Part shown: piece after piece, positions 9,856 to 29,643 of the stretch
Numbering within the stretch: the stretch's first letter is position 1
Layout: each line of letters starts with the position of its first letter
Origin: a candidate division WOR-3 bacterium
GTDB lineage: Bacteria; Hydrothermota; Hydrothermia; JBDRYB01
NCBI GenBank assembly: GCA_049969615.1
Contig: JBMFOM010000012.1
Location: 1 to 29,643, forward strand
Length of the DNA: 29,643 bases
Direction of reading: 5' to 3'
Translations under genes and position numbers: made by a program
Notes under the pieces: generated by a model
Database searches by the model: none
Told to the model about the DNA's origin: nothing
Seen by the model: only the letters and a program-made list of their open reading frames with translations

Positions 9856-10041
9856 GAAACCCCTGAAAAATCCCGGTTTGTCCTTGGTCCCCGTCCGGGA
9901 GCCTCATAATAGATGGAAGAGAATCCTTAGGAAATGCCCCCGTGGCGGGATTTTTCAGGGGCCACTCTTAGAAACCCGTTCTCTTAGACAAAGTGCTCCT
10001 GGCTCAAGCCATTAAGTTATTACTACTTTATCAGGGGTCTC
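9856..10041 (+). mobile_element. MITE family 1, full-length copy (186 bp)
   Basis: TIRs GAAACCCCTGAAAAA / TTTATCAGGGGTCTC (13/15); internal perfect IR CCCCTGAAAAATCCCG at 9860-9875 and 9946-9961; non-coding. Confidence 0.85.
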
Positions 10042-12264: not shown

Positions 12265-12442
12265 GAAACTCCTGGAAAATCCCGGTTTGTCCTTGGCCAC
12301 TATCCAAAAGCCTCATCATAGCCAGAAGAGCACCCTGAGGAAATGCCCTCGTGGCGGGATTTTGCAAGGGTCCCTCTTAGAAACCTGTTCTCTTGGACAA
12401 AGTGTTCCTGGCTCAAACGAATAGGTTATTACTACTTTATCA

Positions 12443-12575
12443 ACCCTCCAACGGGCAAAGGGCCATGGAGCCGGGTGAGGTGGCAGTTGATCTAAGGGGC
12501 AACATGGCCACAGAGGTCTCAGCCAAAGGCTCACCCGGTTCTCCGACCACATATTTCTATGTGCTTTCTTAGGGG
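12443..12575 (-). ncRNA. Putative (partial) IS110 bridge RNA: 5' hairpin plus target-binding loop
   Basis: Lies downstream of TATAAT (12581-12586, minus); CACATA-GAAA-TATGTG hairpin at 12548-12563; long stem 12530-12544 pairing with 12467-12479, enclosing TGAGACCTCTG (target left flank plus core) and GATCA (complement of core plus right flank). Confidence 0.65.
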
Positions 12576-12607
12576 AAGAAATTATAGAGGCCGGGTAAAG
12601 TGATATA
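12443..12607 (-). mobile_element. Non-autonomous IS110-like mini-element (165 bp plus CA core)
   Basis: Flanked by duplicated CA (12441-12442 and 12608-12609), no TIR; end sequence CAACCCTCCAA is identical to the end of the IS110 transposase element at 29519-29529. Confidence 0.8.
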
Positions 12608-12678
12608 CAGAGGTCTCATCTAAGAACCGCTCCGGACTGTATTTTTAGAACTGGAAGGCCTCAAAAAAATCGTATTGT

Positions 12679-12853
12679 GAGACCCCTGATAAAGTAGCGA
12701 TAACTTACTGGTTTGGGGGGAGGAGCACTTTGTCCAAGAGAACAGGTTCTAAGGAGGGTCCTCCTGAAAGAAAAATCCCGCAACAATGGCATTTACTCAG
12801 GGTTCTCTTCTATCTATGATGAGGCTGACAAACCGGGATTTTTCGGGGGTTTC
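12679..12853 (-). mobile_element. MITE family 1 copy, inverted relative to the 12265 copy
   Basis: gagacccctgataaagtag...gggatttttcgggggtttc is a reverse-complement homologue of 9856-10041. Confidence 0.85.
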
Positions 12854-19034: not shown

Positions 19035-19490
19035 TCACTCCTTGGGGACCACCCGGACCTTCAGGGGTGCGGTGAAGTCTGGGCCCAACCTGACCTCCAC
19101 GGTGTATTCTCCGAGGGCTTTTATCGGTTTTTCAAGGTGCAGGGCACCCTTCTCAATGTCAATGCCGGCCTCCGCTAGTTTCTCAAGGATGTCTGAGGCC
19201 TTCACTGAGCCAAAGGCTTTCCCCTCCTCTCCCACGAGGAGGCTCACCTCAACCGTAAGCTCGGAAAGCCTAGCCGCGATGGCCTCCGCGGTCTCCCGTA
19301 GCCTTTGGGCCTTGAGCTGGTGTATTTTTTTGAGTTCCTCATATCTCTTGAGGTTCTCTGGAGTGGCAATAACCGCAAGGCCCCTGGGCAGAAGAAAATT
19401 TCTGGCATAACCGCCATTAACGCTCCTGGTCTCGCCGGCCGCGCCGAGGCCCTTTACATCCCTTATGAGTATGACCTTCACCGTGCTCAT
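19035..19490 (-). CDS. rplI: 50S ribosomal protein L9
   Basis: KVILIRDVKGLG, GYARNFLLPRGLA, FGSV. Confidence 0.96.
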   Translation of the reverse strand: MSTVKVILIRDVKGLGAAGETRSVNGGYARNFLLPRGLAVIATPENLKRYEELKKIHQLKAQRLRETAEAIAARLSELTVEVSLLVGEEGKAFGSVKASDILEKLAEAGIDIEKGALHLEKPIKALGEYTVEVRLGPDFTAPLKVRVVPKE

Positions 19491-19497
19491 GCTAACC

Positions 19498-19719
19498 TCA
19501 CGAGTAGTATGATTGCAGGAATGGCAGGAGAGCCATGATCCTCGCCCTCTTTATGGCCTTCGCGAGGCGCCTCTGGTGATACGCGCAAACGCCACTTGAG
19601 CGACTGGAGAACATTTTTCCCCTCTGGGTTATGTAGCGTTTCAGGGTCTCGGTGTCTTTGTAATCTATAGACCTGAGATCAGCCTTACAGAACTCGCATG
19701 TTCTTTTTTTTCTGGGCAT
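19498..19719 (-). CDS. rpsR: 30S ribosomal protein S18
   Basis: [29 protein letters not shown]. Confidence 0.96.
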
Positions 19720-19728
19720 CTTGCTACC

Positions 19729-20160
19729 TCAAAATGGAAGCTCTTCCTCTGGTATACCCTCGTCAAAATCGGGCATGACATCGGGGGTTGCGGGCACCTC
19801 TGTCTCGGTAGAATCAGCGGCCGCTTTGTCCAGGGACTGGACACGTATGGCCTGTATCTCTATGATGCTCCTTTTCTGTCCCTCAGACTCCCACTGTCGG
19901 TAAGCCAGGCGCCCTTCCACCACAACCGCAGAGCCTTTGACGAGCTTTCCGCCCATCCGTTCCGCGTTGGGGCCCCAGACGGTTACCCTTATGAACAGGG
20001 TATCATCCTTCCACTCATCGCCGACCAGATAGCGTCTGTTGGAGGCCAATTGCATGTTTAGGACTGGCCTTCCGGTGGGGGTATATCTCAGTTCCGGGTC
20101 ATGGGTGAGCCGCCCGGAGAGTATCACATAGTTTATGCTCGGCAAACGGAGCTCTGCCAT
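19729..20160 (-). CDS. ssb: Single-stranded DNA-binding protein
   Basis: GRLTHDPELRYT, VEGRL, acidic tail EEELPF. Confidence 0.96.
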   Translation of the reverse strand: MAELRLPSINYVILSGRLTHDPELRYTPTGRPVLNMQLASNRRYLVGDEWKDDTLFIRVTVWGPNAERMGGKLVKGSAVVVEGRLAYRQWESEGQKRSIIEIQAIRVQSLDKAAADSTETEVPATPDVMPDFDEGIPEEELPF

Positions 20161-20161
20161 G

Positions 20162-20443
20162 TCAATCCTCCTTTATGACGATGCCACGAATTATGTCCGG
20201 GTTCATCCTGAACTCCTGGTAAAGATCACCCGGGACATCTGGCGGCGCGGAGAACTGAATCACCAGATAGAAGCCCTCCCTGTGGCCTTTTATCTCGTAG
20301 GCCATCTCGCGCCTTCCCCATTCGTCCACGCTTACCACTTCACCTTTCTTTGATATTATGCTCTTTATCCTTTCGCCCAGCCTGGCTATTGCCTCGTCCT
20401 CAAGGGCCGGGTTCAGGATAACCATGGTCTCGTATTTCTTCAT
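20162..20443 (-). CDS. rpsF: 30S ribosomal protein S6
   Basis: YETMVILNP, WGRREMAYEI; rpsF-ssb-rpsR-rplI context. Confidence 0.96.
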   Translation of the reverse strand: MKKYETMVILNPALEDEAIARLGERIKSIISKKGEVVSVDEWGRREMAYEIKGHREGFYLVIQFSAPPDVPGDLYQEFRMNPDIIRGIVIKED

Positions 20444-20472
20444 GCTATCTCCTCGGACCCGCAGAGCGGGGG
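20444..20472 (-). promoter_or_regulatory. Putative S6:S18 autoregulatory leader
   Basis: Hairpin CCCGC-TCT-GCGGG followed by CCG directly before the AGGAG SD of rpsF. Confidence 0.45.
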
Positions 20473-20495
20473 TCGGTTTTTCCGACCGGTTTTTA

Positions 20496-20578
20496 TGGAG
20501 GGAGGAGGATTTGAACCTCCGTAGGCGTCAGCCAGCGGGTTTACAGCCCGCCCCCTTTGGCCGCTTGGGTATCCCTCC
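20496..20578 (-). tRNA. tRNA-Tyr (GTA)
   Basis: GGAGGGA/TCCCTCC acceptor stem, GCGGG-CTGTAAA-CCCGC anticodon arm, long variable arm, GGTTCAAATCC; CCA not encoded. Confidence 0.95.
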
Positions 20579-20610
20579 GGGGTTTTCCTAAAGGAGTCCT
20601 CTTATTCAAG

Positions 20611-20684
20611 AGCTGGTGGTGGGACTTGAACCCACAACCTGCTGATTACAAATCAGCTGCTCTGCCGGGTTGAGCTACACCAGC
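20611..20684 (-). tRNA. tRNA-Thr (TGT)
   Basis: GCTGGTG/CACCAGC acceptor stem, CTGAT-TTGTAA-TCAG anticodon region, GGTTCAAGTCC; CCA not encoded. Confidence 0.95.
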
Positions 20685-20690
20685 AGAGCG

Positions 20691-20805
20691 AAATTATAAC
20701 CCATTCCCCACGCAGGATCAAACATTTGTTTATGTGGGAAGGCCAACAGATCGGCAATAATCCTGAGTTTTTAACCCCAGATTTGCGGCAGGCCAGGTTC
20801 CAAAG
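20691..20805 (-). repeat. Repeat family 2 copy supplying the TTGATC-N17-TATAAT promoter (20693-20721) of the tRNA/rpsF operon
   Basis: Aligns with 10052-10157; the -10 ends 8 nt before the tRNA-Thr 5' end. Confidence 0.7.
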
Positions 20806-21937: not shown

Positions 21938-23361
21938 TTGAGAAGTTCTTCCAGCCTCAGCGCGGCGACAAAGAGCGTTTCTTCGTGTATTCGCGGAGCC
22001 GCAAGATGGATTCCGGGCCTGAAACCAGAGGTATCGGGATGTCCGGGAACGCTTATGCCAGGAACGCCAACCAGATTCGCGGCCGCGGTCAGGGTGTCCA
22101 TCAGATATACTGCCAGCGGATCAGAGAGTTTCTCACCTTTCTTGGCCGGAGGAACCGGGAAGGTCGGCGAGAGAATCACATCAACCTCACGGAAGGCTTC
22201 CTGGTAGTCCCTTGCTATGAGGGCTCTCACCTTTTGTGCCCTTCCGAAATACTGCTCCTGGTATCCCGCGGAGAGCACGAACGCGCCCGCGGCTATCCTG
22301 CGTTGAACCTCTGGCCCAAAACCGGCTGATCTTGTGGCGACATACATCTCCTCAAGGCTGGTGAACTCCTCGGCCCTGAACCCATATCTGATACCATCAA
22401 ATCTGGCGAGGTTGGAGGAACACTCTGCCGCGACTATTATCTGGTAGCAAGGGATAACATAGCGGGTGTGGGGCAACGAGATTTCCTTTAGGAAAAACCC
22501 GTCCCTCTCAAGGAGCCTCGCCGCGTTCTCCACTGCCGACGCAACGCTGGGGTCAGTTCCTTCGCCGAAGTATTCTTTCGGTAGCCCGACCCTGAGCTTC
22601 GCTTTTGGATAGGCCTCAAGTATATCCTGGGCTAATGGGAGCGGTTCCGTTGATGTGGTTGAGTCCATTGGGTCGTGGCCAGCCATTATCAAGAATACCT
22701 TGAGACTATCCCTGACAGAGTGCGAGATGACGCCTATCTGGTCAAGAGAGGAGGCGAAGGCTATGAGGCCATAACGGGAAACCCTGCCGTAAGAGGGTTT
22801 GAACCCAACAACGCCGCACCACGCCGCAGGCTGACGAATGGAACCGCCGGTGTCAGTCCCGAGCGCAACCGGGACCATGCCGGCGCCTACCGCGGCCGCG
22901 GAGCCGGAGGATGTACCTCCAGGAACATGCTCAGGGTTTATCGGATTTGATGTGGGGCCGAAGTATGAATATTCCCCGGTTGAACCCATGGCGAACTCGT
23001 CCATGTTGGTTTTACCGACAACTATACAGCCGGCTTCTAGCAGTCGGGATAGGGCTGTCGCGTTGTACGGAGGTCTATATCCGAGGAGCATTCGGGAAGC
23101 GCATGTTGTCTCGTGATCCTTGTAACAGATGTTGTCCTTGACCGCGATGGGGATTCCCCAGAGAGGGGGAAGGGGATCAGGGGGATTCCCTAGAGCAAAT
23201 GCCTGAGCCTTAGCCTCCTCTAGAAACAGGCTCGTAAAAGCGTTGATGATCGGTTCCTTTTCCTCTATTACCGAGGCCACGCGCGCCATGACATCCGGCG
23301 GACCCAGCTCACCCCGGCCATAGAGCTCGTGTATCTCATCTATAGTATTCAAGGAACTCAT
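21934..23361 (-). CDS. gatA: Asp-tRNA(Asn)/Glu-tRNA(Gln) amidotransferase subunit A
   Basis: KDNI, GKTNMDEFAMGS, GGTSSGSAA, GTDTGGSIRQPA, SNLARFDGIRYG, GFGPEVQRRI; start moved to ATG 23361. Confidence 0.92.
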   Translation of the reverse strand: MSSLNTIDEIHELYGRGELGPPDVMARVASVIEEKEPIINAFTSLFLEEAKAQAFALGNPPDPLPPLWGIPIAVKDNICYKDHETTCASRMLLGYRPPYNATALSRLLEAGCIVVGKTNMDEFAMGSTGEYSYFGPTSNPINPEHVPGGTSSGSAAAVGAGMVPVALGTDTGGSIRQPAAWCGVVGFKPSYGRVSRYGLIAFASSLDQIGVISHSVRDSLKVFLIMAGHDPMDSTTSTEPLPLAQDILEAYPKAKLRVGLPKEYFGEGTDPSVASAVENAARLLERDGFFLKEISLPHTRYVIPCYQIIVAAECSSNLARFDGIRYGFRAEEFTSLEEMYVATRSAGFGPEVQRRIAAGAFVLSAGYQEQYFGRAQKVRALIARDYQEAFREVDVILSPTFPVPPAKKGEKLSDPLAVYLMDTLTAAANLVGVPGISVPGHPDTSGFRPGIHLAAPRIHEETLFVAALRLEELLN

Positions 23362-23884
23362 GGCTTCTCTCGTATCCCATCCTAAAGGCCTCGGAGTTGC
23401 CCTCAAGGAACCTCGGAGACACATCCTCGGAAAGGGCTCTGTCCGCGTGCTCTGGATCGGTTGCCCCTGTTAGTCCAGCGATGAAACCTATGGCAATCAT
23501 GTTCGCCATCATGGGGTTACCTATCTCGTCAGATGCCAGGAGGGTGAATGGAAACCGCAGGACCCTGGCCATGTGCTTTTTCTTCAGTTGCACGAATTCC
23601 CCGTCCAAAAGCAGGAGCTTGGTTGGCTCGTGGGGTAGAACATACTTATCGTAGGAGCTCTGGTCAAACGCGAAGGAGATGGCCGTGGCCTCCGGAAAGG
23701 GAAAATCTATTGGTTCGTCTGAGATCACTATCTCGGCCGCCGTGAGGCCCCCGCGAACCTCGGCTCCGTATATTGCTCCATAGGAGGCGAACCTGCCTGA
23801 TTTGGCCGCGGCCTTGGCCAGAACAGCGCCCGCCAGCACGACCCCTCGGCCGCCAGAACCAGCCATAAGTATTTCCGTTCTCAT
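23336..23884 (-). CDS. 2-oxoacid:ferredoxin oxidoreductase gamma subunit
   Basis: AGSGGRGVVLAG, YGAEVRGG, NMIAIG; start at ATG 23884. Confidence 0.88.
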   Translation of the reverse strand: MRTEILMAGSGGRGVVLAGAVLAKAAAKSGRFASYGAIYGAEVRGGLTAAEIVISDEPIDFPFPEATAISFAFDQSSYDKYVLPHEPTKLLLLDGEFVQLKKKHMARVLRFPFTLLASDEIGNPMMANMIAIGFIAGLTGATDPEHADRALSEDVSPRFLEGNSEAFRMGYERSHEFLEYYR

Positions 23885-27980: not shown

Positions 27981-28745
27981 TTGAGCTTCGCTAGAAAAAA
28001 CCTGAAGATCATAGGTCGCCTGGCCTTCCCTGGACCCATAAACCGGGGAGGGCCTTCTCCTTTCTTCAAGATTCTCATGGTTTTGACCGGAGTTTTGGTC
28101 TCCACCCTAGTCCACGACAGGTTGGCCCTGGCGCTCCTTTTGCTCATGGCGCTAGCCTTTGCCCTAGCCTGGAAAGCCAGGCCATCATCGCTTCTAAAAC
28201 GTCTCGGCCCTTTGATCCTCTTTTTCGCCGTGATCTTGCCTCTGCCGGCAATTTTTATCCCTGTGGGTTCACACGAGCCAGTGCGCCTCTGGATTCTTCC
28301 CATTTACGCCAACGGACTTTCGGCCGCTATTACGCTCTGTCTCAGAACATCGTCGGCAATATGCTGGGCCGGGGCCGGATTCCTGACCGAGGAACCCCAC
28401 AAACTGCTTTCAGCCCTGCCACTGCCCTCAGTGCTAGCCGACATAATCCTGGGTGCCCACAGATACATTTCGCTCCTGGCGCGGGAGGCCTGGGAAATGT
28501 TTCTGGGAAAACTGGCCAGGGATCCCGTAGGTGGTTTTCGGAGCAACCTTTTGTTTATGGGATCAAGGGTGGGATTACTTTTCGTGCGCTCGGCCGATAC
28601 GGGTGAAAAGGTATATCTAGCGATGAGAGCCAGGGGTTATCCGGGAACCCCGCACAGGACAATAATAAGATCCCCCCCAATCAGAGATATTGCTTGGATT
28701 GCTGGTTTCGTCATGGCAATTTCCCTTATCATCTGGGTTGCCTGA
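27981..28745 (+). CDS. ECF transporter T component (NikQ/CbiQ)
   Basis: TM helices, RYISLL, VYLAMRARGY. Confidence 0.85.
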   Translation: MSFARKNLKIIGRLAFPGPINRGGPSPFFKILMVLTGVLVSTLVHDRLALALLLLMALAFALAWKARPSSLLKRLGPLILFFAVILPLPAIFIPVGSHEPVRLWILPIYANGLSAAITLCLRTSSAICWAGAGFLTEEPHKLLSALPLPSVLADIILGAHRYISLLAREAWEMFLGKLARDPVGGFRSNLLFMGSRVGLLFVRSADTGEKVYLAMRARGYPGTPHRTIIRSPPIRDIAWIAGFVMAISLIIWVA

Positions 28746-28748
28746 GAC

Positions 28749-29414
28749 ATGGAGGTTTTTCGCCTTACTGGCATATCCTTTTCCTATCTGAACGGAATTG
28801 AGCCAATTAGGGATTTCTCCCTTGTGGTTGGCAAGGGAGAGTTCCTTATGGTTTCCGGCGAGAACGGCTCCGGGAAAACAACCCTGCTATGGATCATGGC
28901 CGGGCTTCTTTTTCCCCAGAAGGGAAAGGTTTTCTTTGAGGGAAAACCCCTGACGGAGAAGACCGCTGAAGACAGAAAGTTCTCTCTCTGGTTCAGGCGT
29001 AGGGTTGGCCTGCTTTTTCAGGAACCGGATGTTCAGTTGTTTTCTCCGACCGTTGGAGAGGACATAGCGTTCGGGCCAAGAAACCTTGGGCTGGAGGATG
29101 TGTCTCTGAGAGTTGCGAGGGCCGCGGCTCTTATGGGCCTTGAAAGACTGCTGGGAAGGCCACCCCATACCCTGAGCTGGGGCCAGAAGAAAAGGGCCGC
29201 CATAGCAACTGTTCTGGCCGGGAACCACGATATCCTTCTTCTAGATGAACCAGCGGCCGGATTGGATTCTCGCTGGCGGGATAGGTTGATGGCTGTCTTG
29301 AGTGATCTGATCGCCAGCGGGAAAACCATTGTTGTCGTCGCGCACGATGATCCAGAGATGAGGGCCATGGCCGCCAAGGTTGTGGTTATGCCCGGGCCAG
29401 ACGAATCAGTTTGA
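28749..29414 (+). CDS. ECF transporter ATPase (NikO/CbiO)
   Basis: GENGSGKT, LFQEPDVQLFSPTV, LSWGQKKR, LLLDEP. Confidence 0.92.
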   Translation: MEVFRLTGISFSYLNGIEPIRDFSLVVGKGEFLMVSGENGSGKTTLLWIMAGLLFPQKGKVFFEGKPLTEKTAEDRKFSLWFRRRVGLLFQEPDVQLFSPTVGEDIAFGPRNLGLEDVSLRVARAAALMGLERLLGRPPHTLSWGQKKRAAIATVLAGNHDILLLDEPAAGLDSRWRDRLMAVLSDLIASGKTIVVVAHDDPEMRAMAAKVVVMPGPDESV

Positions 29415-29466
29415 TCGCACTGAGTTTCCAAAATTCCGAATAAAGGTTGTTTAGTCGCCCCTTGGG

Positions 29467-29520
29467 GCCTGGCCGCCACAAAATCCGGTCTCAGAGGATT
29501 AGAGCCATTATCCCGGATCA
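29467..29520 (+). repeat. Divergent repeat family 2 fragment adjoining the IS110 end
   Basis: cctggccgccacaaaatccgg...attatcccggatc resembles cctggcctgccgcaaatctgg (20691 copy) and attgcccggatc (10086). Confidence 0.45.
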
Positions 29521-29643
29521 ACCCTCCAATATTTTATTCATAATAGACCCCCGTAGTGAGGACTGTGAAGACGAGGTCAACCAGTTTCCTGGCGAGGGCC
29601 GCCTTGGCTTCAAGGGGGCTTTTGCCTTCAGCGAGTTTTCGTC
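29521..29643 (-). mobile_element. IS110-family element, right end (truncated by the window)
   Basis: 13-bp non-coding end followed by the CA core at 29519-29520; end shared with the 12443 mini-element. Confidence 0.8.
29534..29641 (-). CDS. IS110-family transposase, C-terminal 35 aa (partial; not in the ORF track)
   Basis: RKLAEGKSPLEAKAALARKLVDLVFTVLTTGVYYE* matches the IS110/IS116 C-terminal GK...ALARKL...Y pattern. Confidence 0.8.
   Translation of the reverse strand, partial: RKLAEGKSPLEAKAALARKLVDLVFTVLTTGVYYE

Follow-up and report, generated by a model that had tools for sequence, protein, structure and literature searches.

The window analysed here, a stretch of 29,643 nucleotides from a candidate division WOR-3 bacterium, is the entire contig C12 of an assembly with 203 contigs and 2.06 Mb. 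Three parts of it matter for this analysis: the right edge, where a probable transposase gene is cut off by the end of the contig; a mini-element of 167 nt in the interior (12441-12609, minus strand); and the REP-like intergenic repeats into which such DNA has been inserted. The gene at the edge is represented by its final 35 codons (29537-29641, minus strand; peptide RKLAEGKSPLEAKAALARKLVDLVFTVLTTGVYYE), with a stop codon at 29534-29536 and a reading frame that leaves the contig end. Beyond the stop codon lies a non-coding right end of 13 nt (29521-29533, minus strand), the same sequence being present at 10 contig ends, and its tip is a 9-nt left donor half-site, TTGGAGGGT (29521-29529, minus strand). 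Next comes CA at 29519-29520 (TG on the transposase strand), the core dinucleotide, of which an unoccupied target has a single copy and an inserted element one at each junction. The right-target flank of this window-edge copy, CCCGGAT (ATCCGGG on the transposase strand; 29512-29518), is non-canonical and is unique sequence. The window also contains two tRNA genes (20496-20578 and 20611-20684, minus strand, Rfam). In the same-genus genome G002, the cbiQ/cbiO-like ABC transporter genes (window 27981-29414) lie next to the region homologous to the tRNA region of the window (19375-20699), and therefore gene order has changed between the species.

The initial annotation of this DNA had proposed that an IS110-type transposase C-terminus stops at 29534 and that only 13 bp separate it from a CA core, and both proposals hold, since the minus-strand frame at 29537-29641 with its stop codon at 29534-29536 weakly matches the IS110 family profile described below and 29521-29533 is all that lies between the stop codon and the CA at 29519-29520. 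It had also noted that the edge shares a 13-mer, ATCAACCCTCCAA, with the mini-element, and that the flank at the edge matches a proposed right guide over 5 nt. The 13-mer has exactly two sites in the window (12439-12451 and 29517-29529), with none expected in 100 shuffles, and occurs 11 times genome-wide; GGATCA (29515-29520) and AGATCA (minus strand, 12488-12493) indeed have GATCA in common. The description of the window-edge flank as a different repeat had to be abandoned, because a blastn-short search with 29415-29520 against the whole assembly matched the query itself alone.

The 35-residue peptide aligned with positions 311-341 of the 343 positions of NCBIfam NF033542 (IS110 family RNA-guided transposase) with E=0.0039; its score of 16.4 bits is far beneath the curated cut-off of 140 bits for this profile. 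A Pfam search with the same 35 residues gave 0 matches, the residues seen falling downstream of the Tnp domain PF02371. When the peptide was compared with plasmids by tblastn, 383 records were obtained, and the peptide was covered to at least 80% in 381 of them; the matches had 46-57% identity with E values of 0.02-0.4 and lay on the C-termini of annotated IS110 family transposases, most of the 25 plasmid matches listed carrying the IS110 family transposase annotation. The closest named cluster in the ESM Atlas was an IS116/IS110/IS902 fragment at 0.88, which serves as a lead only. A phmmer search of 1.84 billion representatives returned a single match, which was rejected as a spurious repetitive protein. 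The profile alignment and the tblastn matches are each weak and agree on the placement, which suggests that the peptide is the extreme C-terminus of an IS110 recombinase.

The last 127 nt of the window (29517-29643) form a repeat that was found on 10 of the 203 contigs, each time at a contig end, and the copies on the nine contigs other than C12 are 98.6-100% identical. C12 thus terminates at 29643 because it enters a collapsed multi-copy repeat. Another copy of this right end, in the last ~200 nt of contig C63 (reverse strand), contains a 109-nt MITE-like repeat between CCAATATT and TATTTTATTC, with imperfect 12-nt inverted ends (GAGCCTGTCCCA / GAGGCTGTCTCA) and a TATT duplication at its flanks; at least 21 near-full-length copies of this repeat occur in other parts of the genome at 77-96% identity.

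The mini-element, of which copies are found in C12 and C3, begins with a CA core at its right-end-like junction (12441-12442), followed by a right end of 9 nt, TTGGAGGGT (12443-12451, minus strand), which has the same sequence as the final 9 nt of the full-element right end. Its left-end portion of 156 nt (12452-12607, minus strand) contains a -10-like box, a small 5' hairpin and a complete predicted target-binding stem-loop, and is closed by a second CA core at the left-end junction (12608-12609); both cores were located by sequence and junction comparison. The left-target flank, GAGGTCTCAT (ATGAGACCTC on the transposase strand), occupies 12610-12619. A search for open reading frames within the mini-element found none. 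It has both donor half-sites and the target loop, and it contains nothing fit for the 3' half of a donor loop, the only candidate donor-loop sequence being the 11-nt left-donor-like string at its end. The stretch 12377-12760 places the mini-element within a palindromic composite made of a REP arm, a central module of ~75 nt (GAGGTCTCA...TGAGACCCC) and a reversed REP arm, so that the composite amounts to two mirror-image insertion-sequence targets, one occupied and one free (12679-12693).

The second mini-element, on contig C3 at ~23282-23451, carries 5 private substitutions. The joint between right end and left end is the same in C12 and C3, and the flanks differ. In C3 the left flank, GGAGGCCAG, matches the left target guide described below at only 5 of 11 positions, a poor match, and this copy could be an off-target or half-match insertion or the product of a later rearrangement.

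The left-end portion of the mini-element is itself repeated. A repeat corresponding to window 12494-12609 was found at 13 further contig ends with 97-100% identity over 67-116 nt, and within the element (12494-12607) these contig-end copies have 0-2 mismatches to the window mini-element; the left ends of the assembly consist of these 13 contig ends and the two mini-elements in C12 and C3. The initial annotation had expected the element at the edge to have a left end nearly identical to the mini-element, and had described IS110-group elements as having a left end that is long and a right end that is short. The expectation is borne out indirectly, by the 13 contig ends, which agree at 97-100% inward to 12494, and the description agrees with a right end of 13 nt from stop codon to core and a left end of at least 116 nt at the contig ends and 156 nt in the mini-element. 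The stretch 12452-12493 was seen in the two mini-elements only; since the 3' strand of the predicted target stem lies at 12471-12479 and its 5' strand is contained in the contig-end copies, the full copies would share this sequence to at least ~12471. A polymorphism in the left end, ATAGAGG/ATAAAGG, is common to C3, C42, C93, C156 and C186, and suggests that the element may have two sublineages, while the near-identical left flanks of C29 and C156 suggest that strain variants may be present in the bin.

The junctions of both kinds of ends are highly regular. The right-end junctions read TTTAT-CA-ACCCTCCAA in 11 of 12 cases, the exception being the window edge itself (CCGGAT-CA), and the left-end junctions read GATATA-CA-G(G/A)GGTCTC in 13 of 15, the exceptions being C93 (GGGGTCTT) and C3 (GGAGGCC). 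The plus-strand flank that the initial annotation had foreseen at the left end of the edge element is accordingly seen, again indirectly, as CAG(G/A)GGTCTC at these 13 of 15 left-end junctions. The core CA is present at 14 of the 15 left-end and all 12 right-end junctions, and unoccupied sites have a single CA. Junction matches on C136, C39 and C113 were dropped as chance regular-expression matches within unrelated sequence. The right flanks correspond to the body of an intergenic, REP-like repeat, the 3' module of which has ~123 copies in the genome, and the left flanks past GGTCTC are unique sequence. The unoccupied target, TTTATCAG(G/A)GGTCTC, has 55 exact copies genome-wide, two of which are in the window: TTTATCAGGGGTCTC at 12679-12693 (minus strand), in the mirror-image REP arm beside the mini-element, and an exact match at 10027-10041 (plus strand). 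Joined together, the right-end flank and the left-end flank rebuild TTTAT-CA-G(G/A)GGTCTC, which is the 3' end of the REP-like repeat. Because the two types of flank match the two parts of the unoccupied REP site, they are two halves of one site. Insertion into it takes place at the single CA and in one orientation, with the right end always beside the REP body and without target duplication; the element ends are dissimilar and form no terminal inverted repeats. The left flanks of C18, C42, C60 and C93 carry a GGTTATAATTT-type motif 25-50 nt past the insertion site, a placement indicating that the REP-like target often lies just upstream of promoter-like sequences.

The left end also encodes a candidate bridge RNA that fits this target. 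Researchers have found that, in the IS621/IS110 subgroup, the left target guide consists of the left target and core sequence and occupies the 5' side of an internal loop, and that the 3' side of the loop is occupied by the right target guide, which is reverse-complementary to the core and right target (PMC11208160); in inserted copies, the left-end junction is described as LT|RD and the right-end junction as LD|RT (bioRxiv 10.64898/2026.08.14.744561). On the transposase strand, which is the minus strand of the window, the target reads GAGACC(C/T)C-TG-ATAAAG. Both the MFE and the centroid folds predict a target-binding stem-loop at 12471-12538 (minus strand), the basal stem of which pairs CCGGGUGAG (12530-12538) with CUCACCCGG (12471-12479) and encloses UGGC - UGAGACCUCUGU - GGC(CAUGUU)GCC - CCUUAGAUCAAC - UGCC(A). 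The 124-nt fold has z = -2.4, and an equally good fold was found in 5 of 200 shuffles. The predicted left target guide, UGAGACCUCUG (12511-12521, minus strand), is on the 5' side of the loop and is identical to the left target plus core; when the left end was shuffled 5000 times, a match of 11 nt arose in 2 cases, and the single difference between the guide and the G variant of the target would form a G-U pair. The predicted right target guide, AGAUCA (12488-12493, minus strand), is on the 3' side of the same loop and complements 4 nt, TGAT, of the REP-type targets and 5 nt, TGATC, in the window-edge copy. Since the left guide pairs over 11 nt and the right guide over only 4-5 nt, target choice is predicted to depend mainly on the left half-site, which fits the invariant left flanks and the single non-REP right flank at the window edge. 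All left-end copies are near-identical. A -10-like box, TATAAT, is located upstream of the predicted RNA (12581-12586, minus strand), and a strict scan of 12350-12800 for sigma-70 promoters and terminators found nothing. Rfam gave no family match to the bridge RNA and nothing credible at 12300-12800, the window yielding its two tRNAs at gathering score.

The body of the element was sought both in this genome and elsewhere. The profiles PF01548 (DEDD), PF02371 (Tnp) and NF033542 had no match in the whole assembly. Among the sequences searched, no read or contig joins the right end to the left end through a gene, and only the mini-elements join the two ends. Attempts to pair right-end with left-end contigs, or to detect empty sites, by means of two same-genus genomes were unsuccessful, as gene order differs and the junctions are mosaic repeats. 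Among the genomes searched, the element looks confined to this species, because right-end DNA was not found in 40 relatives, DNA of the left end or mini-element was not found in 20 relatives (the two same-genus genomes being included in both sets), and no close relative of the peptide is present in 272 genomes of the phylum, where the best identity was 50% and the left ends of the genes concerned were unlike that of the window. In 60 relatives, NF033542 detected distant IS110 genes only, with a peptide identity of at most 42%. Exact 25-28-mers had 0 matches in metagenome_contigs and viral_contigs, collections that may leave out sequences close to this genome, and degenerate peptide motifs had 0 and then 8 matches in genome_contigs, none of which was related beyond the motif.

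Further copies came from other samples. Four sequencing runs (X1-X4) carry small parts of the stretch as contigs, which are informative for the parts covered and allow neither depth nor copy number to be derived. In X1, a 639-nt contig matches 29517-29643 with 0 differences and extends 508 nt past the window end, and thus the element is longer than the part of it held by the window. A 282-nt contig of the same run carries 12439-12617 with 1 difference and has flanks that do not fit the window, and a contig of X2 connects 29517 with a sequence resembling the REP copy at 10029. Runs labelled hot springs metagenome contain this right end and mini-element as well. As the copies in C12, C3 and X1 have unlike flanks, the mini-element appears to have moved after its formation.

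We consider it probable that 29517-29643 is the right end of a multi-copy IS110-subgroup element whose other end is a left end of the 12494-12609 type, and that the mini-element is its gene-less derivative. The main argument for assigning both repeat ends to one element is the two-halves-of-one-site pattern. An alternative would be two repeat families, namely an IS110 element whose own left end is unseen and a separate, non-autonomous family of the left-end type that uses the same target. This would account for the mini-elements alone joining the ends, for the unequal counts of 10 right ends and 13 left ends, and for 12452-12493 being seen only in the mini-elements, but the REP body with TTTAT-CA and the G(G/A)GGTCTC flanks are exact halves of the unoccupied site, the loop of the left end itself encodes the REP-like site, and the mini-element fuses the last 9 nt of the window-edge right end to the left end. 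Moreover, all 23 of 23 ends are located at contig ends, as one collapsed repeat would give, and we regard two families as improbable.

It is still less probable, indeed very unlikely, that the edge repeat is other mobile or repeated DNA whose 35-residue likeness to IS110 transposases arose by chance. The low significance of the peptide matches (E=0.0039 for the profile and 0.02-0.4 for tblastn) and the one spurious repetitive protein that phmmer found in 1.84 billion representatives would be expected in such a case, but the match sits at the extreme end of both the profile and annotated IS110 genes, insertion is specific in site and orientation, with a shared core dinucleotide and without target duplication or terminal inverted repeats, and the left end has target-matching guides at the loop positions expected of a bridge RNA in the predicted fold. 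We give similarly little credence to the idea that the mini-element is an independent or ancestral RNA-gene module that an insertion sequence captured as its left end: near-identical sequences give no direction of descent and one IS110 member is known to have modular sub-elements (MITEPpu9; PMC12288879), but the window mini-element is only 0-2 bases off the contig-end left ends while the C3 mini-element has 5 changes of its own, full left ends (at least 13) outnumber mini copies (2), and the mini-element ends are exactly the two donor half-sites of the element.

If both ends do belong to one IS110-type element, this element would be roughly 1.3-1.5 kb long, and its body is probably missing from the binned assembly because the collapsed repeat formed a high-coverage contig that was not binned. 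By analogy with known IS110 elements, the bridge RNA encoded by the left end would pair through its target loop with the REP-like site and through its donor loop with the junction of right end, core and left end, and the DEDD/serine recombinase would then swap strands at the core. The mini-element appears to be a cut-down copy of the full IS110-type element; it has no gene, and is therefore dependent on a full copy. For IS621, a 22-bp donor suffices when bridge RNA is provided in trans (PMC11208160), so the mini-element, by analogy, should be mobilisable by a full copy. Lacking both donor loop and gene, it would move only with the recombinase and the full bridge RNA of such a copy. The initial annotation had proposed that the window-edge element is autonomous and supplies the recombinase; this may be so, and the helper of the mini-element could be any of at least 10-13 copies and not specifically the one at the window edge. 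Both this copy and the mini-element in C3 occupy half-sites that match poorly, a point against the overall reading.

One possibility for the origin of the mini-element, which we put forward tentatively and think somewhat doubtful, is that it arose by excision at the DNA coding for the left donor guide, which acted as a pseudo-right-end. By the pairing rule, the left donor guide should have the sequence TTGGAGGGT-TG, and thus the mini-element could stem from guide-coding DNA; 12443-12451, read above as the left donor half-site, is possibly the coding copy of the left donor guide instead. The 11-mer TTGGAGGGT-TG lies 20 nt past the target stem-loop, at the place expected for the donor loop's 5' side, and has the same length as the left target guide. 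Excision guided by a donor half-match would then recombine the real left junction with the pseudo-end and release a circle of the left end up to the guide, and reinsertion of this circle would give the observed 167-nt element, with its target loop intact and its donor loop cut at the 5' side. If this reading is true, every IS110-subgroup element would have a built-in pseudo-right-end within its left end, and the full-length left end here would run ...GGCCCTTTGCCCG-TTGGAGGGTTG, with a distal stem and then a right donor guide resembling GATATACA beyond it.

These observations have several consequences. The fragmentation of the assembly is explained, as 23 contig ends (10 right and 13 left) stop in one element. 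The pairing of a predicted bridge-RNA target loop with its genomic target can be read in a natural setting, in which 55 sites are still free, and one repeat family serves as the landing pad for another mobile element. Given the hot springs metagenome label, the recombinase may be a heat-tolerant bridge recombinase. The mini-element would be a natural guide-only derivative, that is, one with the target loop only, which bears on the origin of partial IS110 fragments and on whether such fragments add guide RNA or compete for it.

As judged from its DNA, the window element agrees with the IS110 subgroup in every feature that could be tested. The core of IS621 is CT, compared with TG in the window element. 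Like the IS621/IS110 subgroup (PMC11208160), the window element combines a long left end with a short right end, has a core dinucleotide common to donor and target, shows neither terminal inverted repeats nor target duplication, is inserted into repeated intergenic elements, and carries a left-end loop in which the 5' side corresponds to the left target and core and the 3' side complements the core and right target. Compared with IS621, its left guide matches over 10-11 nt and its right guide over only 4-5 nt, it targets a REP-like repeat that is lineage-specific and belongs to a bacterium from runs with the label hot springs metagenome, and it is known here from 35 C-terminal residues and its ends rather than from its recombinase or donor loop. 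The left end has no detectable sequence similarity to any relative found.

Precedents are known for the individual features of this system: IS110 members that target REP sequences, a companion MITE, reintegrated partial fragments, and natural RNAs with the target loop only. ISPpu9 and ISPpu10 of Pseudomonas putida are IS110-family elements that sit in REP sequences (PMC12288879; bioRxiv 10.64898/2026.03.19.712850). MITEPpu9, as described in PMC12288879, resembles the window mini-element in being a small, non-autonomous companion that is bounded by the end sequences of its parent and occupies independent sites, but it contains the gene for the Ssr9 sRNA, derived from the region downstream of the transposase gene, whereas the window mini-element is a left end, with its target loop, fused to a 9-nt piece of the right end. 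Partial IS110 circles and reintegrated fragments have been reported mainly from expanded, cargo-carrying loci and often have one donor match (bioRxiv 10.64898/2026.08.14.744561), whereas both donor half-sites of the window mini-element are exact. The TBL-only RNA of CazIS110-1/IS621 is a truncated RNA made from a full element (bioRxiv 10.1101/2025.10.25.684509); the mini-element is similar in that it could encode only the target-binding-loop part of a bridge RNA, and different in that this RNA would come from a separate DNA copy.
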